Virus record (IMG/VR): IMGVR_UViG_2648501802_000001
Reading direction: 5' to 3' (one strand)
DNA length: 36,013 nucleotides
DNA from: a virus
Taxonomy: Duplodnaviria > Heunggongvirae > Uroviricota > Caudoviricetes
The translations under genes and the position numbers were made by a program. The notes beneath the pieces were generated by a model, which ran no database searches, had not been told where the DNA came from, and saw only the letters and a program-made list of their open reading frames with translations. Shown piece by piece: positions 6,538-28,967 of this stretch (its first letter is position 1; each line of letters starts with the position of its first letter).

Positions 6538-7458
6538 ATGGGCTTGGCGATGTATAACGATCCTTATAGTGACCCAAAAGCGTGGGAATCATATTTCAAA
6601 AATATTGTTTGGCTACATTATAAGCCTGCTAACTGTTGTGACTTGCCAGATGAGCATGGAGGCGACTTTGGGCTGGAGTGTTACACTCTGAGTGGTCATG
6701 TTTTTCAGTGTTACTTGCCTGAGCAGTCGAGTGATATTGATAAGCTTTATAAAGCGCAACAAAAAAAGATTTATACTGATATAAAAAAGTTTTCTCAGGA
6801 TAACATTAAAGAATTAGAGGAGCTTTTTGGCACATTAAAAATTAGCCGCTGGATATTAGCTACACCATATAATAAATCGGCGAAATTAAGTCAATATTGC
6901 ACAAAAAAATCATTAAAAGTAAGAGAGTTAGGGATTTCTTACGTTGCTGATGATTTTCAAATAGTAGTGCAAACAGATCGAAATTATATAGAAGAAGCGT
7001 TCTTTCTTCGCAAAAATAACTATCAATTAAGCTTTAATATAAATGATGCGACGGCTGAGAATGCTGCTAACTTTATTAGTGAAAATACATCTTTTTTAGA
7101 TAAGCTAAATTTAAAATTACCTAAGATAAATGATGATGTATCTAGGCAGGGTTTATATAGAGAGTTTTTAATACAAAAATATCTTGATTATCAAAACTTG
7201 CTGGATGCTTTGAAGAGAGACTGGGTTGATATCTATGAAATTATCTATAACTGTGTTCAACATAGAGAACGTAATTTGGTAGGTCTCTTTCTTCTTACTT
7301 CATCAGATGCGAAACCATCAGATATAATGAAAGATGAAATCGCTTTGTTAAAGAAATGTATTGAAGAGGAAGTTAGTACGCTTAAACAGGCTGACTTGGA
7401 TAAGATAACATGGGGAGTTATTTCTGATTGGCTTATAAGATGCCCTTTAGATTTTTAG
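6538..7458 (+). CDS. Unknown 306-aa protein, first gene of hotspot operon (candidate effector, LmuA-like position)
   Basis: AT-rich ORF immediately after A; 1-nt gap to the next gene; no motif I can assign confidently. Confidence 0.7.
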   Translation: MGLAMYNDPYSDPKAWESYFKNIVWLHYKPANCCDLPDEHGGDFGLECYTLSGHVFQCYLPEQSSDIDKLYKAQQKKIYTDIKKFSQDNIKELEELFGTLKISRWILATPYNKSAKLSQYCTKKSLKVRELGISYVADDFQIVVQTDRNYIEEAFFLRKNNYQLSFNINDATAENAANFISENTSFLDKLNLKLPKINDDVSRQGLYREFLIQKYLDYQNLLDALKRDWVDIYEIIYNCVQHRERNLVGLFLLTSSDAKPSDIMKDEIALLKKCIEEEVSTLKQADLDKITWGVISDWLIRCPLDF

Positions 7459-7459
7459 A

Positions 7460-7936
7460 ATGGAAAAGCAAATGCATATAACGATAGATGAAATAATAGG
7501 AAGGCCGTTTACGTTTAATAAACGACCTGAACATTTGCCATGTGATATGAGACCATTGTGGCGTTGCAGTTTGTTGCTGATAATATTCCTTGTCACAGGG
7601 AGAGCTGGTTGCTGTTCTTTAAAAAAACTTCATTTAATTAATTGGATGTTAAAGTCAGAGAATAATGAAGCAATGTTTGAATTCTGGCTTTTAAACAAAG
7701 AAGGTTTAAAGCCTGAAGTAAGATTGGATCCAACTTTAGATAGAGCAATACAGCTATTATTAGCAGAGGATTTTATTTTGAGAAATGAACGAGCGTTCAA
7801 AATAAATGAAAAGGGGCTTAAGGTCGCTGAGAAATTGCTTTCTCTTGATGTGTTCAAAGAAGAAAGGTTGGTGCTAAATAAACATAAGGCTGGACTGTCC
7901 GAAACTAACATTAATAAAATATTTCAGGTGGGTTAA
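7460..7936 (+). CDS. Small 158-aa protein with winged-helix-like C-terminus (LmuC/kleisin-like position)
   Basis: Translationally coupled on both sides (1-nt gaps); AT-rich. Confidence 0.65.
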   Translation: MEKQMHITIDEIIGRPFTFNKRPEHLPCDMRPLWRCSLLLIIFLVTGRAGCCSLKKLHLINWMLKSENNEAMFEFWLLNKEGLKPEVRLDPTLDRAIQLLLAEDFILRNERAFKINEKGLKVAEKLLSLDVFKEERLVLNKHKAGLSETNINKIFQVG

Positions 7937-7937
7937 T

Positions 7938-9959
7938 ATGTCGTTGGAAATTATTTCATTGGAGTTAGTAGCAAATACTTCGGATGGGCGTTATGGTGTT
8001 AGTATACCTTTTTCAAATGGCTTGTTTTTATTAAGAGTTGAGAATTCTCATGGTAAATCAACTTGCATGAATGGGATTGCATATGCACTTGGGATGGAAA
8101 AGGCATTAGGTGTCGGTTCTGGAAAAATCCCATTCCCTCCATCTTTGACTAGAGCACTAACGACAAAAGATAATGTTGAAGTTAGTGTAATATCATCTTA
8201 TGTTTTGCTAAAAATAAAGAATCATAAGGGAATAGAAGCATCTTTGAAAAGGAATATTATCGGTCACGATAATAATAATGTTATTTATATAGATGAGAAG
8301 AATAATGTAAAAAGTAAGAGTGGTACTTATTTTTTACATAGAGAGGGCGATACTGAAAGGGAACGTGGTTTCTATAAGTGGTTAGCTGATTTTATAGGTT
8401 GGAGTTTGCCAAATGTTCCAAACCATAATGGGAAGGACACTATTCTTTATCCATCCGTACTTTTCCCTGCATGGTATGTTGAGCAAAAAAAAGGATGGTC
8501 GTCAATTATGGCGACTGTACCAACACAATTTGGAATTAAAGAGCCAAAGAAAAGAGCTCTAGAATTTTTAATGTCTCTTGATGTTAATGATAATATTTTA
8601 TTGCGTAGTTCGTTAAGAAATGAACTTGATATTATTTATCATGATTGGAAGTTAATTAAACACAATGCAGAAGTTATTGCTTCTAAATTGTCGTCAGTTG
8701 TCACAGGGATTCCTGAACAACCAGTGGCAAAATTTGATCATTATAAGATAGATTTGATTATTAAAAATGGTAGCGTCGTTAGATCTATTGTTGATGTTCG
8801 TAATGAACTGGAAAAAGAGTTGCAAGAAATTAAGTTTGACACTCTTGGTGAGCAAGAAGAACAAACTTTACAATTATCAGTGGTTAAGTTATTAGGTCAA
8901 AAAAATGATGAAATTAACTCTCTGGAATTAAAGATTAAAGAGATTTGTGAGCATAGAAGTTATATTCAATATCAAATTCAGGCGACCAAAAACAGATTGT
9001 ATAATCTGTTGGAAGATAAAAGGAAGTATGAAGATTTAAAGAAAATATCATCTTCGGATGCGTATAAGTCAACAGATTTAATGTCAAATATTTGTCCGAC
9101 TTGTGGTGCAAGTTATAATGATAATTTGCTAAGTTTTTCATCGCAAGAAAATCTGATGACATATGAAGATAGTTTGAACTTTATTAAAGAGCAAGTAAAA
9201 GCATTTGAGTTTGTTCTGTCGGATAGTGAAAAGCAATTAAAGCTTAAAGATGTTGAGAGGAGTGATTTAGAGGGGGAAATAGCCAAGATTAGAGTTGATA
9301 TTAATGCATTAAGGGAGTCAAAATATCCCTCAATGGTTGTTCAGGAGGAGTTTCTGAGACGTAAAATAAACATTGAGAATAAAATTAATGCCATTAACGA
9401 TGGCATTAAAAGTATATTGGACATTAGACTGGAGTTGGATTCATTACACCGTAGATATAAAAAGCTTATCGCGAAAAGAAAAGGGTTGCCAGATAATTTC
9501 TTGTCGCGTAATGATGCCGATAAGTTAAAATTTCTTAATAAAGAAGTCGTTGCACGATTAGAAAAATATAATTTTACAAGTTTTGATTCTAAACTTGTGT
9601 CAATATCAGAAGATAATTACTTACCTACTAGGGAAGGATATGATATAGGTTTTGACACATCAGCTAGTGATGGAATAAGAATCATTTGGGGTTATTTAAT
9701 AAGTTTATTTGTTGTTGGTTCTAAATTTCAAACAAATCACCCTGGATTGATTGTGTTTGATGAGCCTCGTCAACAAGAAGCAAATAAAGTAAGTTTTGCC
9801 GAGTTACTTAAAGATGCTGCAGAAACAACAAAAGGACAAGGGCAGATCATTTTTGCTACATCAGAAGATGAAAATGTCTTAAAAGAGGCATTAGAAGGGT
9901 ATGACTATACAATGATATCCTTTGATAAGAACAATGGGAAATTGTTGAGGAAATTATAA
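7938..9959 (+). CDS. SMC/Rad50-like ABC ATPase with coiled coil and CxxC zinc hook (LmuB-like)
   Basis: Walker A VENSHGKST (aa 35-42); long charged heptad-rich middle with CPTCG (aa 386-390); C-terminal Walker B GLIVFDEP. Confidence 0.8.
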   Translation: MSLEIISLELVANTSDGRYGVSIPFSNGLFLLRVENSHGKSTCMNGIAYALGMEKALGVGSGKIPFPPSLTRALTTKDNVEVSVISSYVLLKIKNHKGIEASLKRNIIGHDNNNVIYIDEKNNVKSKSGTYFLHREGDTERERGFYKWLADFIGWSLPNVPNHNGKDTILYPSVLFPAWYVEQKKGWSSIMATVPTQFGIKEPKKRALEFLMSLDVNDNILLRSSLRNELDIIYHDWKLIKHNAEVIASKLSSVVTGIPEQPVAKFDHYKIDLIIKNGSVVRSIVDVRNELEKELQEIKFDTLGEQEEQTLQLSVVKLLGQKNDEINSLELKIKEICEHRSYIQYQIQATKNRLYNLLEDKRKYEDLKKISSSDAYKSTDLMSNICPTCGASYNDNLLSFSSQENLMTYEDSLNFIKEQVKAFEFVLSDSEKQLKLKDVERSDLEGEIAKIRVDINALRESKYPSMVVQEEFLRRKINIENKINAINDGIKSILDIRLELDSLHRRYKKLIAKRKGLPDNFLSRNDADKLKFLNKEVVARLEKYNFTSFDSKLVSISEDNYLPTREGYDIGFDTSASDGIRIIWGYLISLFVVGSKFQTNHPGLIVFDEPRQQEANKVSFAELLKDAAETTKGQGQIIFATSEDENVLKEALEGYDYTMISFDKNNGKLLRKL

Positions 9960-13250: not shown

Positions 13251-13865
13251 ATGGCAAAAAAAGTCTCAAAATTCTTTCGTATCGGCGTTGAGGGTGACAC
13301 CTGTGACGGGCGTGTCATCAGTGCGCAGGATATTCAGGAAATGGCTGAAACCTTTGACCCGCGTGTCTACGGTTGCCGCATTAACCTGGAACATCTGCGC
13401 GGCATCCTGCCTGACGGTATTTTTAAACGTTATGGCGATGTGGTCGAACTGAAGGCCGAAAAGATTGATGACGATTCGGCGCTGAAAGGCAAATGGGCGC
13501 TGTTTGCGAAAATCACCCCGACCGATGACCTTATCGCGATGAACAAGGCCGCGCAGAAGGTCTATACCTCAATGGAAATTCAGCCGAACTTTGCCAACAC
13601 CGGCAAATGTTATCTGGTGGGGCTGGCCGTCACCGATGACCCGGCAAGCCTCGGCACGGAATACCTGGAATTCTGCCGCACGGCAAAACACAACCCTCTG
13701 AACCGCTTCAAATTAAGCCCTGAAAACCTGATTTCAGTGGCAACGCCCGTTGAGCTGGAATTTGAAGACCTGCCTGAAACCGTGTTCACCGCCCTGACCG
13801 AAAAGGTGAAATCCATTTTTGGCCGCAAACAGGCCAGCGATGACGCCCTGATGACGAACTGCTGA
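13251..13865 (+). CDS. O: Capsid scaffolding protein/protease (shortened)
   Basis: MAKKVSKFFRIGVEGDTCDG... ending ...FGRKQASDDALMTNC; about 204 aa versus about 284 aa in P2 as I recall it. Confidence 0.8.
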   Translation: MAKKVSKFFRIGVEGDTCDGRVISAQDIQEMAETFDPRVYGCRINLEHLRGILPDGIFKRYGDVVELKAEKIDDDSALKGKWALFAKITPTDDLIAMNKAAQKVYTSMEIQPNFANTGKCYLVGLAVTDDPASLGTEYLEFCRTAKHNPLNRFKLSPENLISVATPVELEFEDLPETVFTALTEKVKSIFGRKQASDDALMTNC

Positions 13866-13923: not shown

Positions 13924-14946
13924 ATGCGCCAGGAAACCCGCTTTAAATTTAATGCTTACCTGTCCCGTGTTGCCGAACTGAACGGCATCGACGCCGGTGA
14001 TGTGTCGAAAAAATTCACCGTTGAACCGTCGGTCACCCAGACCCTGATGAACACCATGCAGGAGTCCTCTGACTTTCTGACCCGCATCAACATTGTGCCG
14101 GTCAGCGAAATGAAAGGGGAAAAAATTGGCATCGGTGTCACCGGCTCCATCGCCAGCACCACCGACACCGCCGGTGGCACCGAGCGTCAGCCGAAGGACT
14201 TCTCGAAGTTGGCGTCAAACAAGTACGAATGCGACCAGATTAACTTCGATTTTTATATCCGCTACAAAACGCTGGACCTGTGGGCGCGTTATCAGGATTT
14301 CCAGCTCCGTGTCCGTAACGCCATTATCAAACGCCAGTCCCTTGATTTCATCATGGCCGGTTTTAACGGCGTGAGGCGTGCCGAAACCTCTGACCGCAGC
14401 AGTAACCCGATGCTGCAGGATGTGGCGGTCGGCTGGCTGCAGAAATACCGCAATGAAGCCCCGGCGCGCGTGATGAGCAAGGTTACTGACGAGGAAGGTC
14501 ACACGACCTCTGAGGTCATCCGCGTGGGTAAGGGCGGTGATTATGCCAGCCTTGATGCACTGGTGATGGATGCGACCAACAACCTGATTGAGCCGTGGTA
14601 TCAGGAAGACCCTGACCTTGTGGTGATTGTGGGACGTCAGCTACTGGCGGACAAGTATTTTCCCATCGTCAACAAGGAGCAGGACAACAGCGAAATGCTG
14701 GCCGCTGACGTCATCATCAGCCAGAAACGCATCGGCAACCTGCCAGCGGTACGCGTCCCGTACTTCCCGGCGGATGCGATGCTCATCACGAAGCTGGAAA
14801 ACCTGTCCATCTACTACATGGATGACAGCCATCGCCGCGTGATTGAGGAAAACCCGAAACTCGACCGCGTGGAGAACTACGAGTCAATGAACATTGATTA
14901 CGTGGTGGAGGACTACGCCGCCGGTTGTCTGGTGGAAAAAAATTAA
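13924..14946 (+). CDS. N: Major capsid protein (C-terminally truncated by frameshift)
   Basis: 340 aa ending VEKN*; the sequence after an A-run in the +1 frame reads IKVGDFSTPAKATAEPGA* up to 14998. Confidence 0.85.
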   Translation: MRQETRFKFNAYLSRVAELNGIDAGDVSKKFTVEPSVTQTLMNTMQESSDFLTRINIVPVSEMKGEKIGIGVTGSIASTTDTAGGTERQPKDFSKLASNKYECDQINFDFYIRYKTLDLWARYQDFQLRVRNAIIKRQSLDFIMAGFNGVRRAETSDRSSNPMLQDVAVGWLQKYRNEAPARVMSKVTDEEGHTTSEVIRVGKGGDYASLDALVMDATNNLIEPWYQEDPDLVVIVGRQLLADKYFPIVNKEQDNSEMLAADVIISQKRIGNLPAVRVPYFPADAMLITKLENLSIYYMDDSHRRVIEENPKLDRVENYESMNIDYVVEDYAAGCLVEKN

Positions 14947-19236: not shown

Positions 19237-19776
19237 GTGACATGTAAAAAGAATGAAGGTGATGTTGTAAAGAAAATTGAACTGGTGCTGAAAACAATCG
19301 CGCGGACGGATTCTTATTTAAATTCAGCCAATACTAAATCAACGATATTACTAAGCTTAGCTTCAGCTGTAATTGTTGCTATTATAGCAAATTTTGACAA
19401 AGTTATATGTCTGGTAGATGTGGATAGTGATAGGATTTTTCTCTCTCTTTTATTGATTGTAATAGTTGGGTTATTGGTGATCTCTTTGTTATTTTCTCTA
19501 AAAGGTGTTACTCCAAATATCTCTAAGAGTGATAAGGAGAATACTTTTTCATTTGTTGATATATCAAGTTATTATAGTAGTCTTGATTGCTATTCTAGTA
19601 GTTTTAAGTCAGTGAGTGATCTGGAGTTGTTGGAGCAGTTAATTGCATTGAATTATACTCTTTCCAGAGCATTAACTAGCAAATATGAGATGCAAATCAT
19701 AGCCATTGACTTTATAAAAATGGCTGTTTATGTGCTTTGTTTTTTAATATATGTGGTTGCTTTATCTAATTGGTGA
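19237..19776 (+). CDS. Small membrane protein with three predicted TM helices (candidate effector)
   Basis: 179 aa; GTG start with GGAAGG RBS; hydrophobic stretches ILLSLASAVIVAIIANF, IFLSLLLIVIVGLLVISLLFSL and IIAIDFIKMAVYVLCFLIYVVAL; very AT-rich. Confidence 0.7.
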   Translation: MTCKKNEGDVVKKIELVLKTIARTDSYLNSANTKSTILLSLASAVIVAIIANFDKVICLVDVDSDRIFLSLLLIVIVGLLVISLLFSLKGVTPNISKSDKENTFSFVDISSYYSSLDCYSSSFKSVSDLELLEQLIALNYTLSRALTSKYEMQIIAIDFIKMAVYVLCFLIYVVALSNW

Positions 19777-19786
19777 AGGTTTTTGT

Positions 19787-21139
19787 ATGTCCATAAAGAG
19801 TATTTATTTAGTATTAGATGAAAGGCTGGAAGAGATAATTTCAAAATCAAAATCGCAATCAGTCCATGATGCTATATTTGAATCAGTGGATAATACACAG
19901 TTGGCCACGGAGAGCTTAAGTAAATCTTCTGGTTTCGTAAGAAGTTCTATTTCATTGAAAAAAGATGTAGGTGGAGCTGATGTTCAAAGTTATCAGGTGA
20001 AAGATATTGTTAGAAATAAATTTGGCAAGCACGGTCCACTCATGACAAGTTTTGGATGTCATCCGGACTTTAATAAAATGGATGATGGTGAGGTGAGAAA
20101 TGGTTATTCCATTACCATGTTTATGGATATAATCGGCTCAACTAAACTTGGGGTTGTTTTTCCACCAGAAATAGTATTTAGAATCAAAAATGATATTATA
20201 AGATGTGCGATCGAAACAGTGAATGCATTTGATGGTCACGTCCATAGAATTATGGGTGATGCAGTAATGGCATTTTTCCGAAGTAATGACCGATATAAAA
20301 ACAATAAGATCGCAGACAGTGCAATTGATGCAATAAACTGTGCCGTTGTTTTGATTGAAATGTTCAAGGGGGTTGTTATACCTAAATTGAGTGATTTGGG
20401 AGTTGACGAAAACTTAGGAATAAGAATTGGTCTTGACTATGGCCCTCACGAGGAAGTGGTGTGGTCAAAATATGGCTATATGGAAAGTCATGAAGTGACT
20501 GCGACATCTTTTTTTGTTGATGTTGCGGCAAAACTTCAGCAAAAAGCTCCTAAAAACTCAATTATGATAGGTGCAAGTTTTGTAGAGTTATTAGGCCTTG
20601 ATGATGTTCAATTAAAACATAAAATTAACAGAAACAATGGCGTAGAACACAAGGAATTGTATTTAACCCCAAATTATAAAGATGCTTCAGGCAAACCAAT
20701 AAATTACAGACAATATGTATTTGATAACGAACGTTATTGTAATTTGCTGCCTATAAATGATGAGGGGGGTAAACTCATTGTAAAAGCAACGCTTAAGAAG
20801 AGTGAAAATGATGTGTCTGATGATGAGTATATTTGTTGTTCTCGAATGATAAAAAAGGGTATGGGTATCTCATTTAAAGGGTACTATTACTCACAAGAAC
20901 AGTACTCTAATCCCAGGTTCAAATTTCGTGTCGAAAATACAGGTCCTGATGCAGGTAATGTTGATAATAAGGGTAATCATGAGTCATATGAGGTAGCAAG
21001 GTACACTGGCGAGCGTTATTTTGCTAAGCATTGGGAAGATTGTCATTACAAAGGACTGCATTATATGTTTGTATCTTTTTGGAATGGGGATCAATTAATA
21101 GAAAGGGAGAGGTGTTTTTCAGTTTTTATTAACGATTAA
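19787..21139 (+). CDS. Class III nucleotidyl cyclase-like protein with uncharacterised N- and C-terminal extensions
   Basis: Motifs FMDIIGST (aa ~112) and HRIMGDAVMAFF (aa ~154), with the two Asp residues about 44 residues apart; ATG 19787 with GGTGAAGG RBS (the track ORF starts at 19751); AT-rich. Confidence 0.75.
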   Translation: MSIKSIYLVLDERLEEIISKSKSQSVHDAIFESVDNTQLATESLSKSSGFVRSSISLKKDVGGADVQSYQVKDIVRNKFGKHGPLMTSFGCHPDFNKMDDGEVRNGYSITMFMDIIGSTKLGVVFPPEIVFRIKNDIIRCAIETVNAFDGHVHRIMGDAVMAFFRSNDRYKNNKIADSAIDAINCAVVLIEMFKGVVIPKLSDLGVDENLGIRIGLDYGPHEEVVWSKYGYMESHEVTATSFFVDVAAKLQQKAPKNSIMIGASFVELLGLDDVQLKHKINRNNGVEHKELYLTPNYKDASGKPINYRQYVFDNERYCNLLPINDEGGKLIVKATLKKSENDVSDDEYICCSRMIKKGMGISFKGYYYSQEQYSNPRFKFRVENTGPDAGNVDNKGNHESYEVARYTGERYFAKHWEDCHYKGLHYMFVSFWNGDQLIERERCFSVFIND

Positions 21140-23132: not shown

Positions 23133-23736
23133 TTCGCGCCTGCTGCCGACCGGCTCATCACCGCTTGAAGTCGCCGCCGCAAAAGCCTGTGCGGAAATTG
23201 AAAAAACGCCGGTCAGTATTCGTGAACTGTGGAACCCGGATACCTGCCAGGCAAATCTGCTGCCGTGGCTGGCGTGGTCATTTTCGGTTGACCGCTGGGA
23301 TGATAAGTGGCCGGAAGCGACAAAACGCGCTGTTATCCGCGATGCGTATTTCATTCACTGTCATAAAGGCACTATAGGTGCAATCCGGCGTGTGGTGGAG
23401 CCGCTCGGCTATCTGATTGAGGTGAGGGAGTGGTGGCAGCTCAACGAGGAGCCGGGGACGTTCCGTATCGTTGTTGGCGTGCTTGAGCAGGGTATTACCG
23501 AAGAAATGTATCAGGAGCTGGAGCGCCTCGTTGCTGATGCAAAACCGGCGAGCCGCCATCTGACGGGACTGGCTATCAGTTTAAGTACAACCGGCAACAT
23601 TTTTGCCGGTGCGGGATGCTATCACGGCGACGCCCTGACGGTTTATCCCTACACCCCGGAGGCCATTATTGTCGGAGGGGATTATTTCCCGGCCTCGGCC
23701 ATTCATTTAATTGATAACCTGAGAGTAAACGCATGA
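23125..23736 (+). CDS. I: Baseplate protein
   Basis: 203 aa, in the gpI position. Confidence 0.8.
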   Translation: MSDSRLLPTGSSPLEVAAAKACAEIEKTPVSIRELWNPDTCQANLLPWLAWSFSVDRWDDKWPEATKRAVIRDAYFIHCHKGTIGAIRRVVEPLGYLIEVREWWQLNEEPGTFRIVVGVLEQGITEEMYQELERLVADAKPASRHLTGLAISLSTTGNIFAGAGCYHGDALTVYPYTPEAIIVGGDYFPASAIHLIDNLRVNA

Positions 23737-24932
23737 CAGTGAAATACTACGCCATTCTGACTAATCAGGGCGCAGCACGGCTGGCTAACGCGACGATGCT
23801 CGGCAGTAAGCTGAATCTGACGCAAATGGCCGTTGGTGATGCGAATGGTGTCTTGCCGACACCAGACCCGGCACAGACAAAACTGATTAACCAGAAACGC
23901 ATCGCGCCGCTGAATCTTCTGAGTGTTGACCCGAACAACCAGAGCCAGATTATTGCGGAGCAAATCATCCCTGAGAACGAGGGCGGATTCTGGATCCGTG
24001 AGATTGGGCTTTATGATGATGAAGGCGTACTCATTGCGGTGGCGAACTGCCCGGAAACGTACAAACCGCAGTTGCAGGAAGGCAGTGGTCGTACCCAGAC
24101 TATCCGCATGATTCTGGTTGTCACGAATACCGAAGCTATCACGCTGAAAATCGACCCGTCGGTGGTACTGGCGACCCGTAAATACGTGGATGATGAAGTC
24201 CTGGAATTAAAGCTGTATGTGGATGACCAGATGAGAAACCACATTGCCGCACAGGATCCTCATACCCAGTATGCGCAGAAACATAATCCGACATTTACCG
24301 GAGAACCAAAAGCGCCGACGCCTGCCGCAGGAAATAACACCACGCGGATTGCGACCACTGAGTTTGTTCAGGCCGCTATTACCGCTCTGATTAACGGTGC
24401 GCCAGCCACACTGGACACACTGAAAGAAATTGCCGCGGCCATTAACAATGACCCGAAATTCAGCACCACCATTAACAATGCGCTGTCAGGTAAGCAGCCA
24501 CTGGATGAGACGCTGACTCATTTGAGTGGAAAGGATGTAGCTGGTCTTCTCGCATACCTTGGTTTGAGAGAAGCGGCAAAACGGGATGTGGGGACAGGGG
24601 AAAATCAGATACCGGACATGGCCTCTTTTGCCAGTGGTGATGGATGGATGAAATTACCCAACGGGAAAATCCTGCAATATGGTCGTGGTGCGGTTACGCC
24701 GACATTATCGACGCAAACAATGAGAATTACATTCAGCATCCCTTTCCCCAAAAAAGCGGACTGCGCCATGCTTACTCATTCTGGTGATGGCGGTGCGCCT
24801 TTAGGCGCTGGGCGAGGGTTCGTGATGACTGCAGAAGGCCCAACGTTAACCGGCTTTAATTCTGCTTACAGAACGTCATCAACCAGCGACACGGTATCGA
24901 TGAATTACAGTTGGTGGGCTGTTGGTGAGTAA
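23733..24932 (+). CDS. H: Tail fibre protein with exchangeable C-terminus
   Basis: 399 aa with conserved P2 gpH N-terminus (MTVKYYAILTNQGAARLANA...); an inversion crossover site lies inside the gene at about 24556. Confidence 0.85.
   Translation: MTVKYYAILTNQGAARLANATMLGSKLNLTQMAVGDANGVLPTPDPAQTKLINQKRIAPLNLLSVDPNNQSQIIAEQIIPENEGGFWIREIGLYDDEGVLIAVANCPETYKPQLQEGSGRTQTIRMILVVTNTEAITLKIDPSVVLATRKYVDDEVLELKLYVDDQMRNHIAAQDPHTQYAQKHNPTFTGEPKAPTPAAGNNTTRIATTEFVQAAITALINGAPATLDTLKEIAAAINNDPKFSTTINNALSGKQPLDETLTHLSGKDVAGLLAYLGLREAAKRDVGTGENQIPDMASFASGDGWMKLPNGKILQYGRGAVTPTLSTQTMRITFSIPFPKKADCAMLTHSGDGGAPLGAGRGFVMTAEGPTLTGFNSAYRTSSTSDTVSMNYSWWAVGE
24556..24572. repeat. Left inversion crossover site (hix/gix-like)
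   Basis: ACCTTGGTTTGAGAGAA; its inverted partner is at 26456-26472 with 2 mismatches; core resembles the hix ACCTTGGTTT. Confidence 0.6.
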
Positions 24933-24943
24933 TTTTATTCAGG

Positions 24944-25396
24944 GTGATTTATATGAACGAATATGTTTATAGCGCAAGGCATAATGCTTTTTTCCCTGTG
25001 GATATGATTGATAAATATAAATCAGAGGGATGGGATTTATCAGACGCTAAGGAAGTAAATCAAAATATTATCAGTGAGTTTATGGCTGAACCGCCACAAG
25101 GAAAAATCCGTATTGCCGGAGATGATGGGCTGCCTGCGTGGGCAGATATTCCTCCACCCACGCATGAAGAGCTTATTGAAATTACTGAATCAGAAAGACA
25201 GCTACTAATTAACCAGGCCAACGAATACATGAACAGTAAGCAATGGCCCGGTAAAGCCGCTATTGGTCGTCTGAAAGGTGAGGAACTGGCGCAATATAAT
25301 TTGTGGCTGGATTATCTGGATGCACTGGAGCTGGTTGATACCTCCAGTGCACCAGATATTGAATGGCCTACGCCTCCGGCAGTTCAGGCCAGATGA
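24944..25396 (+). CDS. Tail fibre assembly chaperone (gpG/Tfa-like)
   Basis: 150 aa immediately after H; conserved Tfa-type C-terminus. Confidence 0.75.
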   Translation: MIYMNEYVYSARHNAFFPVDMIDKYKSEGWDLSDAKEVNQNIISEFMAEPPQGKIRIAGDDGLPAWADIPPPTHEELIEITESERQLLINQANEYMNSKQWPGKAAIGRLKGEELAQYNLWLDYLDALELVDTSSAPDIEWPTPPAVQAR

Positions 25397-25970
25397 CATC
25401 CGGCGCGGTGCTGGTATCTGTTGCCGTCACCGCGTCAATGTAATCCAGCACAGCGTTAAGCCGGGTTGTTTCTGCCTGCGTCAGTTTACGTCCGGCCTGC
25501 AATTTCAGTTGAATCAGACTGATGGAAGCCATTGCAGTATCAATCAGCGACTGGCGCTGTGCTTCTGCTGCATCTACTGCGGCGCTATGCTGTGCCTCGG
25601 TATCCGTCACCCATTTCTCACCATCCCATTTATCATATGGCGTTAATGGGGCGATAGTGGTTGTATTTTCAGGGTAATCACCCGGAGCGGTGATTTCTTT
25701 TGATTCTCCTGTTTCGGTGCTATAGACCGTTTCACCGCGATGGTCTGGCACATATTCCCATGAGTTAAAATCTGCAGAACGGCAGATTGCATAACCAGCC
25801 TTATGTGTGCCAGGGGCATCTAAACAGGAACATGCCGGAATGCCGACACCAACGGCAAGATATTCATTTGAAGTGGAAATATATTCCCGTGTTTCACCAT
25901 CATAGTTATAAACGGTAACATCCCCTGCCTTTGTTGCAATGAGCTCACTATTTAATATTGCTTTATGCAT
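25368..25970 (-). CDS. Alternative tail fibre assembly chaperone (Tfa') in the invertible segment
   Basis: 200 aa, convergent with the forward Tfa; start overlaps the stop of the alternative fibre segment (ATGA). Confidence 0.7.
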   Translation of the reverse strand: MHKAILNSELIATKAGDVTVYNYDGETREYISTSNEYLAVGVGIPACSCLDAPGTHKAGYAICRSADFNSWEYVPDHRGETVYSTETGESKEITAPGDYPENTTTIAPLTPYDKWDGEKWVTDTEAQHSAAVDAAEAQRQSLIDTAMASISLIQLKLQAGRKLTQAETTRLNAVLDYIDAVTATDTSTAPDVIWPELPEA

Positions 25971-26464
25971 CAGGCTGCCCTCACGATATAGTTAAATGCA
26001 ATATTACGCGGACGCGTTTCTGAGGCTGCGGCACCTAAACCAGCCACTGATTGTTTATATGTTTTAAAGGTTCCATAATCCGGTGCTGGTAATCCAGCAT
26101 CGTTTGTGTTTCCTCTTTTGATAATGTCAGTGCCACTATTTACCCAGCTTTCATCAAAATAGAAATTAATCGTTGCATCAGTCACAATCGTGGATCTTGA
26201 CGGTAATCCATGAGCATGATCCTCCGTTGCATACCCCTGAATACTTAAAATAGAGCGACCTGTATCAATCCCCCGCCCGTCATCCCAGCCACGAATAAAC
26301 TCACCACGTAAATCAGGCAATTTATTTGTCGGGTAAGCCTTTGCCAGTTCCGGGTATTCTTCAGCCGAAAAAGCAGCCCCGTTGCATTTCAGCCAGCCTG
26401 TTGGCGGCGTAGCTGAAGGCCAAGGAACTGGTATGCCAACAGGCAACGCAGAACCTTCTCCCAA
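25970..26464 (-). CDS. Promoterless alternative tail fibre C-terminal segment (H')
   Basis: Fibre-tip-like sequence on the minus strand with no ATG start (the track M is a TTG); reading frame stays open up to the right crossover site. Confidence 0.6.
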   Translation of the reverse strand: MGEGSALPVGIPVPWPSATPPTGWLKCNGAAFSAEEYPELAKAYPTNKLPDLRGEFIRGWDDGRGIDTGRSILSIQGYATEDHAHGLPSRSTIVTDATINFYFDESWVNSGTDIIKRGNTNDAGLPAPDYGTFKTYKQSVAGLGAAASETRPRNIAFNYIVRAA

Positions 26465-26472
26465 ACCAACGT
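26456..26472. repeat. Right inversion crossover site (hix/gix-like)
   Basis: TTCTCCCAAACCAACGT, inverted repeat of 24556-24572. Confidence 0.6.
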
Positions 26473-26607
26473 TTTATGGAATCGGTTAAATATGATGTTG
26501 AAAGAAGGGAGTGTCCTAGTATTGATTGTTAGATAAAAATGGAAAGTGCTGATTGTAACGGTATATTTTAAGATGGTAACACCAAATGGTGCTACCATCT
26601 TTATTAG

Positions 26608-26925
26608 TTATCTGTTCCTTCTGAGGATTCCGCTACTCCCTTGTGTTGTAGGGTTTAATTTTTTCCAATAATGATAACCTTGTGATGTAATCCTTAGAGA
26701 GGCAGTATCTACACTCCATCCATCAATACTTTCAGGAGAACCATCGAAGATTACCTTTCCTGTAAGATACCCATCGTCATGCAGAAAGGCGATATATCCA
26801 TAAACTTCTTTTAAATCACCAATTTCATTGACTAGGCGTTCCCACGCTTGAACAGTGATTCTCTCTGGATAGGCTTCGACAAAATATTTCAGTGTGGTAG
26901 TTTTTTTATTGGTATCGATGTTCAT
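26608..26925 (-). CDS. Orphan 105-aa hypothetical protein in the Z/fun hotspot position
   Basis: ATG with AAGGA RBS; AT-rich; divergent from the invertase gene. Confidence 0.6.
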   Translation of the reverse strand: MNIDTNKKTTTLKYFVEAYPERITVQAWERLVNEIGDLKEVYGYIAFLHDDGYLTGKVIFDGSPESIDGWSVDTASLRITSQGYHYWKKLNPTTQGSSGILRRNR

Positions 26926-27123
26926 CAGATTTTCCTTTTATTGAGGTCAACCTATCTTACCATACTTATTTGTTTCACATGGGAATGCTAAGTGGGCTAT
27001 GTATCCACTATCAGTAAATATTCTTATCCAGCAAGATTACTGTAACTGAGAGCTCCATAGCCTTGTCCGCTTGTACATATATAGATAATTCTGTGTCATT
27101 ATTCTGTTTTTATAGGGATTTTT

Positions 27124-27717
27124 ATGCGTATAGGTTATGTTCGTGTATCAACAAATGACCAGAACACGGAATTGCAGCGTAACGCGCTCGAGTGCGCAGG
27201 ATGTGAGCTGATTTTTGAGGATAAAATCAGCGGCACGAAGTCCGACCGACCGGGGCTGAAAAAACTGCTCAGAACATTATCAGCAGGTGACACTCTGGTA
27301 GTCTGGAAGCTGGACAGGCTGGGGCGTAGTATGCGGCATCTGGTCATTCTGGTTGAGGAACTGCGCGAACGCGGCATTAATTTTCGCAGCCTGACAGATG
27401 CTATTGATACCAGCACGCCGATGGGGCGTTTTTTCTTTCATGTGATGGGTGCCCTGGCTGAAATGGAACGAGAACTCATTGTCGAACGGACTCGGGCCGG
27501 GCTGGAAGCGGCCAGAGCCAAAGGTCGTATTGGTGGCAGACGTCCTAAACTCACCACGAGTGAGTGGGAGCAGGTCGGGCGTTTGCTGGCTGCAGGGGAG
27601 TCACGTCAACGCGTGGCACTGATTTTTGATATTGGCCTGTCCACGCTCTATAAAAAATTTCCCTCATCAGCGATAAAGAATAAATTGTGTCATCCCTTAG
27701 CCAACCGGGACAAATAG
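27124..27717 (+). CDS. Serine DNA invertase (Hin/Gin/Pin/Cin family)
   Basis: MRIGYVRVSTNDQ... with catalytic Ser region; LVVWKLDRLGRS; C-terminal HTH. Confidence 0.9.
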   Translation: MRIGYVRVSTNDQNTELQRNALECAGCELIFEDKISGTKSDRPGLKKLLRTLSAGDTLVVWKLDRLGRSMRHLVILVEELRERGINFRSLTDAIDTSTPMGRFFFHVMGALAEMERELIVERTRAGLEAARAKGRIGGRRPKLTTSEWEQVGRLLAAGESRQRVALIFDIGLSTLYKKFPSSAIKNKLCHPLANRDK

Positions 27718-27776
27718 CCTGACATCTCCGGCACAACTGAAAATATCACTCACCCATTAACCACGGAGTTAAACGG

Positions 27777-28967
27777 ATGAGTGACTATCATCACGGCGTG
27801 CAGGTGCTGGAGATTAACGACGGCACCCGCGTCATTTCCACCGTATCCACTGCCATTGTCGGCATGGTCTGCACGGCCAGCGATGCGGATGCGGAAACCT
27901 TCCCCCTCAATAAACCTGTGCTGATTACCAATGTGCAGAGCGCAATTGCAAAGGCCGGTAAAAAAGGCACGCTGGCGGCATCGTTGCAGGCCATCGCCGA
28001 CCAGTCAAAACCGGTCACCGTTGTCGTGCGTGTGGAAGACGGCACCGGCGACGACGAGGAAACGAAACTCGCGCAGACTGTTTCCAATATCATCGGCACC
28101 ACCGACGAAAACGGTCAGTACACCGGACTGAAAGCCCTGCTGGCGGCGGAGTCTGTTACCGGTGTTAAACCGCGTATTCTCGGCGTGCCGGGACTGGACA
28201 CCAAAGAGGTGGCTGTTGCACTGGCATCAGTCTGTCAGAAGCTGCGCGCTTTCGGATATATCAGCGCATGGGGCTGTAAGACCATTTCCGAGGTGAAAGC
28301 CTACCGCCAGAATTTCAGCCAGCGTGAGCTGATGGTCATCTGGCCGGATTTCCTCGCATGGGATACGGTCACCAGTACCACCGCCACCGCGTATGCCACC
28401 GCCCGTGCGCTGGGTCTGCGCGCTAAAATCGACCAGGAGCAGGGCTGGCATAAAACGCTGTCCAACGTCGGGGTGAACGGTGTTACCGGCATCAGCGCCT
28501 CTGTATTCTGGGATTTGCAGGAGTCCGGCACCGATGCTGACCTGCTTAATGAGTCAGGCGTCACTACGCTGATTCGCCGCGACGGTTTCCGCTTCTGGGG
28601 TAACCGTACCTGCTCTGATGACCCGCTGTTCCTCTTTGAAAACTACACCCGCACCGCGCAGGTGCTGGCCGACACGATGGCTGAGGCGCACATGTGGGCG
28701 GTGGACAAGCCCATCACCGCAACGCTGATTCGCGACATCGTTGACGGCATCAATGCCAAATTCCGTGAGCTGAAAACAAACGGCTATATCGTGGATGCGA
28801 CCTGCTGGTTCAGCGAAGAATCCAACGATGCGGAAACCCTCAAGGCCGGAAAACTGTATATCGACTACGACTATACCCCGGTGCCTCCTCTTGAAAACCT
28901 GACCCTGCGCCAGCGTATCACCGATAAATACCTGGCAAATCTGGTCACCTCGGTTAACAGCAATTAA
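27777..28967 (+). CDS. FI: Tail sheath protein
   Basis: 396 aa, P2 gpFI-like (MSDYHHGVQVLEIN...). Confidence 0.92.
   Translation: MSDYHHGVQVLEINDGTRVISTVSTAIVGMVCTASDADAETFPLNKPVLITNVQSAIAKAGKKGTLAASLQAIADQSKPVTVVVRVEDGTGDDEETKLAQTVSNIIGTTDENGQYTGLKALLAAESVTGVKPRILGVPGLDTKEVAVALASVCQKLRAFGYISAWGCKTISEVKAYRQNFSQRELMVIWPDFLAWDTVTSTTATAYATARALGLRAKIDQEQGWHKTLSNVGVNGVTGISASVFWDLQESGTDADLLNESGVTTLIRRDGFRFWGNRTCSDDPLFLFENYTRTAQVLADTMAEAHMWAVDKPITATLIRDIVDGINAKFRELKTNGYIVDATCWFSEESNDAETLKAGKLYIDYDYTPVPPLENLTLRQRITDKYLANLVTSVNSN

Follow-up and report, generated by a model that had tools for sequence, protein, structure and literature searches.

The stretch of DNA analysed here (the window; 36,013 nucleotides, IMG/VR record IMGVR_UViG_2648501802_000001) carries a P2-like (Peduovirus) prophage, and the subject of this analysis is its tail-fibre region, in which gene H runs across the left one of two inverted recombination sites, two opposed sets of fibre C-terminus and assembly-chaperone genes lie between these sites, and a serine DNA invertase gene is found further downstream. 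The features that make up this region are as follows:

23733-24932, plus strand: gene H as it stands, 399 residues, with the core dinucleotide of the left recombination site in codon 276
23733-24558, plus strand: constant N-terminal part of H, codons 1-275, outside the segment (Pfam PF12571, Phage_tail_fib, residues 1-150, E = 1.1e-62)
24547-24572: hixL, the left recombination site, 26 bp, TTCTCGCATACC TT GGTTTGAGAGAA, core TT at 24559-24560, within H codon 276
24559-24932, plus strand: Hv, the variable C-terminus now fused to H, a gp53-like C-terminal domain (PF21882, E = 1.6e-11)
24953-25396, plus strand: Tfa, the tail-fibre assembly chaperone for Hv (PF02413, E = 1.9e-31; phrog_188, E = 2.8e-63)
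25368-25970, minus strand: Tfa', the chaperone of the silent set (PF02413, E = 3.5e-33; 98% amino acid identity to e14 TfaE)
25970-26469, minus strand: Hv', the silent alternative C-terminus, Collar type (PF07484, E = 8.8e-16)
26456-26481: hixR, the right recombination site, 26 bp, TTCTCCCAAACC AA CGTTTTATGGAA, core AA at 26468-26469
27124-27717, plus strand: serine DNA invertase of the Gin/Pin/Cin/Hin family, 197 residues (PF00239, E = 4.1e-52; PF02796, E = 4.4e-13)
27142-27209, plus strand: putative Fis-dependent recombinational enhancer (homology-based assignment), located in the 5' part of the invertase gene

The original prediction, made from the sequence without database searches, had proposed hix-like inverted sites at 24556-24572 and 26456-26472. 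These repeats do align: a repeat finder pairs the arms 24556-24573 and 26455-26472 (pair I7) as an 18-nt inverted repeat with 16/18 positions (89%) complementary and 2 mismatches, and the repeats extend to two sites of 26 bp each, which show imperfect dyad symmetry and are built 12-2-12 like hix and gix sites. The sites are oppositely oriented, with the segment of about 1.9 kb (24559-26469) between them, and their cores read TT in hixL and AA in hixR on the plus strand, which makes an identical dinucleotide when both sites are read in one orientation; the two sequences differ at positions 12 and 21. A 17-nt pattern drawn from the conserved half of the sites, TTCTCNCAAACCAANGT, matches the 36-kb window twice and no more when up to 2 mismatches are allowed, once on each strand, where 0.08 matches are expected by chance; at least two matches were obtained in 0/100 shuffles. 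When 3 mismatches were allowed, no third recombination site appeared in the window, and the sole added match was the outer half of hixL, a match that points to dyad symmetry within this site. A shufflon, with a third site as in the second P2 locus of enteropathogenic Escherichia coli (EPEC), was considered and ruled out; there are two sites only, and two states.

The arrangement of genes around these sites follows the Mu G segment, as had been predicted: the constant N-terminus of the fibre lies outside, and two opposed sets of C-terminus plus chaperone lie inside. The crossover falls within H, at codon 276 where about 275 codons had been estimated, and the proposed H C-terminus with Tfa on the plus strand and alternative C-terminus with Tfa' on the minus strand are borne out by Pfam matches for all four genes or gene parts (PF21882, PF07484 and PF02413 twice), with the two Caudo_TAP genes on opposite strands. 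The silent half Hv' lacks an ATG start; in frame with it, a TAA stop codon (26476-26474), inside hixR, stands four codons upstream of its first TTG. Inversion of 24559-26469 in silico at the cores joins Hv' to H in an uninterrupted, in-frame H' of 441 residues, compared with 399 residues at present, so that both fusions are in frame. Promoter-like sequences between 26400 and 27800 occur at chance level (2 found, 3.0 expected), and none was assigned to the silent set or to the invertase gene. The set that faces away has neither a start codon nor an operon of its own and is hence predicted to stay silent. The two tips belong to different domain families (PF21882 vs. PF07484), which would fit the use of different receptors by the two fibres.

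Both orientations, whose detection the original prediction had named among its checks, exist in nature. A search of 5,426 complete E. coli genomes with both versions of the left junction found the one inverted in silico in E. coli ST2747, at 100.0% identity over 601 bases, and no perfect match to the window's own. Matches to the inverted and to the window's own junction were obtained in 312 and 73 genomes, respectively, numbers that do not represent an orientation ratio, as some of these fibres may be fixed. The real window aligns to the ST2747 chromosome in three blocks, of which 24559-26472 lies on the opposite strand, with Hv likewise on the opposite strand and the constant part of H identical in both orientations; hixL and hixR are the left and right breakpoints. 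Inverted in silico, the whole window matches the ST2747 chromosome over 31,755 bases with 0 mismatches and one single-base gap. The differences at positions 12 and 21 of the sites, together with the perfect match to ST2747, narrow the crossover to 24559-24566, 8 bp with the core among them. Another pair, independent of the first, consists of two Danish poultry isolates, both with a 96%-related prophage in one chromosomal location but with the segment turned opposite ways; there, the outer half-sites are fixed, and an A/G difference in the inner half-site switches sides. The segment inverts at these sites in nature, with the exchange at the site core, and since an imperfect repeat of 18 bp is too short for efficient RecA recombination, a site-specific exchange is the reasonable reading.

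The candidate catalyst is the product of the invertase gene at 27124-27717. The original prediction had let a Hin/Gin-type invertase follow the segment; the family assignment stands, but the gene does not follow directly, as a 640-bp cassette with an orphan open reading frame (ORF105) intervenes. The protein shows the architecture of a small serine recombinase, an N-terminal catalytic Resolvase domain followed by HTH_7; it matches phrog_125 ("DNA invertase", E = 2.3e-100) and Mu Gin (PDB 3uj3, E = 3.7e-93), aligning with the latter over residues 1-182 without gaps, and keeps the nucleophile Ser9 in the motif YVRVSTNDQ. Residues K47, K/R48, K/R51, Q151, R154 and L155 of Hin contact Fis and the enhancer and are reported to be unique to Fis/enhancer-dependent invertases (McLean et al., 2013; PMC3798978); with residue numbers transferred from Hin to the window protein through our own alignment, the basic residues of helix B (K46, K47, R50) and the Q..RL motif are retained, with the Gin stretches GLKRALKRL and EWEQAGRLL for reference, the latter aligning with EWEQVGRLL in the window. 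The protein is wild-type at the positions that are mutated in hyperactive, Fis-independent Gin (M114V, as in the 3uj3 chain) and in Hin (H107Y, a hyperactive mutant; PMC4817059). The enhancer annotated at cin +19 to +86 in the phage P7 record corresponds to 27142-27209 of the window, which is identical to P7 cin at 55/68 positions (81%) and to Mu gin at 53/68 positions, compared with 68% identity over the remaining gene, and which shares two invariant blocks with both; a scan with the Fis consensus GNNNRWWWWWYNNNC gave 30 matches where 22.5 are expected and was uninformative. An enhancer within 27142-27209 is therefore likely but unproven, and inversion would depend on it and on Fis by analogy with the family.

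The locus is set in a P2-type tail module. In the annotation by the Prokaryotic Genome Annotation Pipeline (PGAP), the ST2747 prophage shows P2 gene order around the locus and adjoins yegQ, and the right edge of the module is marked by a late promoter:

27685-27776, plus strand: pF late promoter region, with the Ogr activator site and the FI leader, by alignment with the annotated P2 pF

Canonical P2 (NC_001895) shares the backbone order V-W-J-I-H ... FI-FII-E-T-U-D-ogr, and its pF is nearly identical to the window from 27685 onward; the return of P2 homology at about 27685 coincides exactly with the annotated activator site of pF. In contrast to the window, canonical P2 has a fixed H-G pair followed by terminator, fun(Z), pF and FI, without invertase, without a second cassette and with no hix sites annotated, in agreement with the original prediction, which had described its fibre module as fixed. 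The fun(Z) hotspot is taken up by the second cassette, ORF105 and the invertase gene. The final ~10 codons of the invertase gene (LCHPLANRDK, 27685-27717) fall in the Ogr activator site, and its 3' end overlaps the FI promoter; the longer tail of the protein is explained by these codons being read from promoter sequence.

Taken as a whole, the locus is read with a probability of roughly 0.9 as a two-state, site-specific inversion switch of the Gin/Pin/Cin/Hin type in the tail-fibre gene of a P2-like prophage. By analogy with this family, invertase dimers would bind hixL at H codon 276 and hixR 1.9 kb downstream, and host Fis, bound to the putative intragenic enhancer of the invertase gene, would promote the synapse of the two sites; the four strands would then be cut at the 2-bp cores, one half would rotate and the ends would be rejoined, flipping 24559-26469. 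In the present orientation, the Ogr-dependent late operon V-W-J-I-H would yield H(1-275) fused to the gp53-like tip, together with Tfa; in the other orientation, it would yield H(1-275) fused to the Collar-type, e14 StfE-like tip, together with Tfa'. A lysogen population would hold both fibre genotypes, and induced particles would carry one receptor-binding tip or the other, which presumably recognise different receptors.

The closest characterised relative is PinE, whose identity to the invertase is 87%, with its P segment in e14, a cryptic prophage of E. coli K-12. The e14 switch shares the layout with an invertase gene just past a segment of ~1.8-1.9 kb, the inverted-repeat core TTGGTTTGG/AGAGAAG, and one of the two fibre sets, as Hv' is 98% identical to the StfE C-terminus and Tfa' 98% identical to TfaE; it also resides in a defective prophage in which the switch still works. 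In contrast to the P2-type myovirus considered here, e14 is a lambdoid remnant; its second tip, StfP, is only 24% identical to the gp53-like tip of the window (E = 0.066), and pinE starts ~30 bp past the annotated stfE end, whereas the 640-bp cassette intervenes in the window. Among P2-like prophages, coexisting orientations were demonstrated by sequencing and polymerase chain reaction (PCR) in two prophages of EPEC E2348/69 (Goldberg et al., 2014; PMC4272514). The simple locus of this strain (2977580-2979467) has the same position in the P2 tail module between H and FI, and shares layout, cassette-type pair and site cores, with an invertase 81% and a Collar-type tip 98% identical to those of the window; it differs in lying in a truncated prophage, in its gp53-like tip, which is another allele (49% identity over 70 residues), and in its invertase gene, which lies 53 bp past the right site with no ORF105. 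With its three repeats and four states, the second EPEC locus is unlike the window, which has two sites. Escherichia phage pro483 and P2-like prophages of O157:H7 carry H, both cassettes and the invertase gene in the same order at ~95% nucleotide identity; in pro483 the gene is annotated as "DNA invertase." These relatives differ in lacking the 640-bp ORF105 cassette, the invertase gene starting 53 bp from the right site. More distantly, the G/Gin system of Mu and the C/Cin systems of P1 and P7 share the constant fibre N-terminus outside and two opposed C-terminus plus chaperone sets inside the segment, 26-bp sites, and an enhancer inside the invertase gene, towards its 5' end; they belong to other phage families, their invertase genes are ~70-73% identical at the nucleotide level, and in P7 cixL overlaps the cin 3' end. 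The G segment of Mu (3 kb) and the C segment of P1 and P7 (4.2 kb) are larger than the segment described here. Fels-2 also carries a DNA invertase, and a 2024 preprint reports that the Z/fun hotspot of P2 often encodes a DNA invertase, with inversion of neighbouring genes. This kind of switch is ordinary and already known, having been described and experimentally shown in E. coli P2-like prophages, and the novelty implied by the original prediction was overstated: P2-like prophages with the switch are common, and inversion was shown experimentally in one of them (PMC4272514).

The window departs from these relatives between hixR and the invertase gene, where two further features are found:

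26570-26601, no strand assigned: stable hairpin with a 15-bp stem (inverted repeat I16; RNA fold -19.8 kcal/mol, z = -5.2), between hixR and the ORF105 stop codon
26608-26925, minus strand: ORF105, an orphan of 105 residues on an AT-rich cassette, between hixR and the invertase gene

The cassette (26475-27114; 640 bp, GC 0.36-0.39) takes the place of the 53-bp spacer of pro483. The hairpin probably terminates the late V-H operon, ORF105, or both; canonical P2 has its terminator after G, in the equivalent place. ORF105 has no match in Pfam, PHROGs, NCBIfam or PADLOC, and a profile search against PDB sequences returned noise only. A first AlphaFold model based on 6 sequences (predicted local distance difference test, pLDDT, of 50) was discarded; a confident model suggests a winged-helix-like fold (MarR/PadR/YjcQ-like). 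Its tiny family occupies one position throughout, the end of the tail-fibre modules of myoviruses, in Escherichia, Citrobacter and others. ORF105 is hotspot cargo and dispensable for the switch; a functional link with the invertase was rejected as the default, given that distant homologs adjoin fibre modules without an invertase nearby. ORF105 and the invertase gene are divergent across a 198-bp AT-rich spacer, and the idea that the ORF105 protein controls invertase expression, together with the further idea that the switch has been kept in a head-defective prophage since one fibre fusion benefits the host, is a long shot; if ORF105 did control the invertase, fibre switching would be regulated instead of purely stochastic.

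It is unlikely that another Pin-family invertase of the host (e14 PinE, PinQ or PinR) flips the segment while the local gene is poorly expressed or inactive. This explanation draws on the repeat core that the window has in common with the e14 P segment, which PinE, PinQ and PinR all invert, Pin enzymes acting in trans on this repeat (PMC12529663). The action of Fels-2 Fin on the Salmonella H segment, cited through the same paper, was counted in its favour as well, as was the replacement of the 53-bp spacer upstream of the invertase gene, the pro483 state, by the ORF105 cassette, with no clear invertase promoter found. Yet the local invertase reading frame is intact, with Ser9, catalytic-domain and Fis-contact motifs in place and 95% nucleotide identity to the pro483 gene; both natural flip pairs carry the ORF105 cassette together with the local invertase gene, and action in trans would supplement local catalysis, not replace it. 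We infer that the local enzyme rather than a paralog is the catalyst. That the two orientations stem from RecA-dependent homologous recombination or from assembly errors is highly improbable. Inverted repeats can in principle recombine, and assemblers can misorient a segment flanked by repeats; but the shared repeat, with its 18 bp and 2 mismatches, offers RecA little length, the crossover has been narrowed to 8 bp that include the core of a 26-bp invertase site, and inversion recurs at the same place in the independent pair of complete genomes and in the PCR-verified EPEC case. Sequencing reads are far longer than 18 bp, and a repeat of this size is unlikely to confuse an assembler.

A different kind of alternative concerns the reason for which the switch persists: the host might keep it in a head-defective prophage because one of the fused fibres protects the cell, for example by blocking phage adsorption. 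A precedent exists in StfE2, a fibre with a gp53-like C-terminal domain that is formed by inversion of the e14 P segment and blocks T2 adsorption (PMC12529663). The near-identity (98%) of the silent set to the e14 StfE C-terminus and TfaE would agree with such a role, as would other defence cargo of the prophage (Lamassu, Pycsar), and the switch still flips although the scaffolding domain of gpO is deleted. However, the gp53-like tip of the window has little in common with e14 StfP, the gpO deletion may be just recent decay, and nearly identical modules reside in apparently intact phages, such as pro483. In P2, the late operon with H is Ogr-dependent and expected to be silent in a lysogen; pF is conserved in the window, and because H lies in this operon, the host-benefit explanation is very unlikely here.

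As a caveat, several observations weigh against the inversion switch as interpreted here, or against parts of it. The outer half of hixR (CGTTTTATGGAA) is poorly symmetric, the least symmetric part of either site, and lies at the edge of the inserted cassette; with this cassette the invertase gene has, moreover, lost its native upstream sequence, and the scan of 26400-27800 found no convincing promoter for it. The enhancer assignment is not backed by a test of synonymous sites, in which identical codons amount to 10/20 (50%) within the stretch vs. 39/111 (35%) elsewhere (p = 0.22, not significant). As Pin-family enzymes can act in trans, catalysis by the local enzyme does not follow from the natural inversions. 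The condition of the prophage itself bears on the consequences of the switch. The gene for gpO, the scaffold and protease (13251-13865 in the window; 8993-9601 in L001), has lost ~80 codons in frame (residues ~200-277 of 284) between the short direct repeats GATGACGCCC and GGTGACGCCC, a deletion also present in ST2747. The C-terminal domain of gpO (residues 195-284) is reported to be "absolutely required" for P2 procapsid assembly (PMC7552001); the deletion removes most of the scaffolding domain, and the prophage is probably head-defective, which renders a host-range consequence for this prophage doubtful. In the window alone, the major capsid gene (gpN, 13924-14946) is also frameshifted near its 3' end, by an A7 run at 14930-14936 (extra A at 14936) compared with A6 in ST2747, and encodes 340 instead of 357 residues; this is the only difference between the window and the ST2747 prophage besides the inversion, and the extra A may be a homopolymer sequencing error. 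Phase-variable host range would be a reasonable inference for the module in intact relatives; for this copy, an effect on host range is doubtful.

Some side observations concern annotation and other cargo. In two genomes with the gp53-like set facing H, L002 (6001-7422) and L018 (9001-10200), PGAP calls H a truncated pseudogene and adds a separate "gp53-like domain-containing protein"; the silent Collar-type half is labelled as a stand-alone "phage tail protein" in the genomes examined. L018 (NZ_CP134387.1; "plasmid" pMTY11352_3, 88 kb) contains a near-identical P2-like prophage, 98-99% identical over the switch region, beside the chromosomal gene pflB, and this record may be misassembled or an unusual replicon. 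Between replication gene A and the portal gene of the window (6550-9959), the old/tin hotspot of P2, lie three Lamassu-like genes (LmuA, E = 9e-30; LmuC, E = 2e-23; LmuB, E = 1e-98) that are labelled hypothetical in RefSeq, and between the virion-morphogenesis gene and baseplate gene V (19237-21139) lies a Pycsar system (PycTM, E = 8.5e-29; PycC cyclase, E = 1.5e-128).

Textbooks cover the mechanism, and earlier publications have documented it, at work, in P2-like prophages; the practical value of the locus lies in a clean natural example, one prophage found in both orientations, whose crossover is located to within 8 bp. The switch accounts for the inconsistent automatic annotation of this region, and an "inversion" between assemblies at this place reflects phase variation, not evolution. 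By means of such a switch, one prophage genotype can carry two receptor-binding tips.

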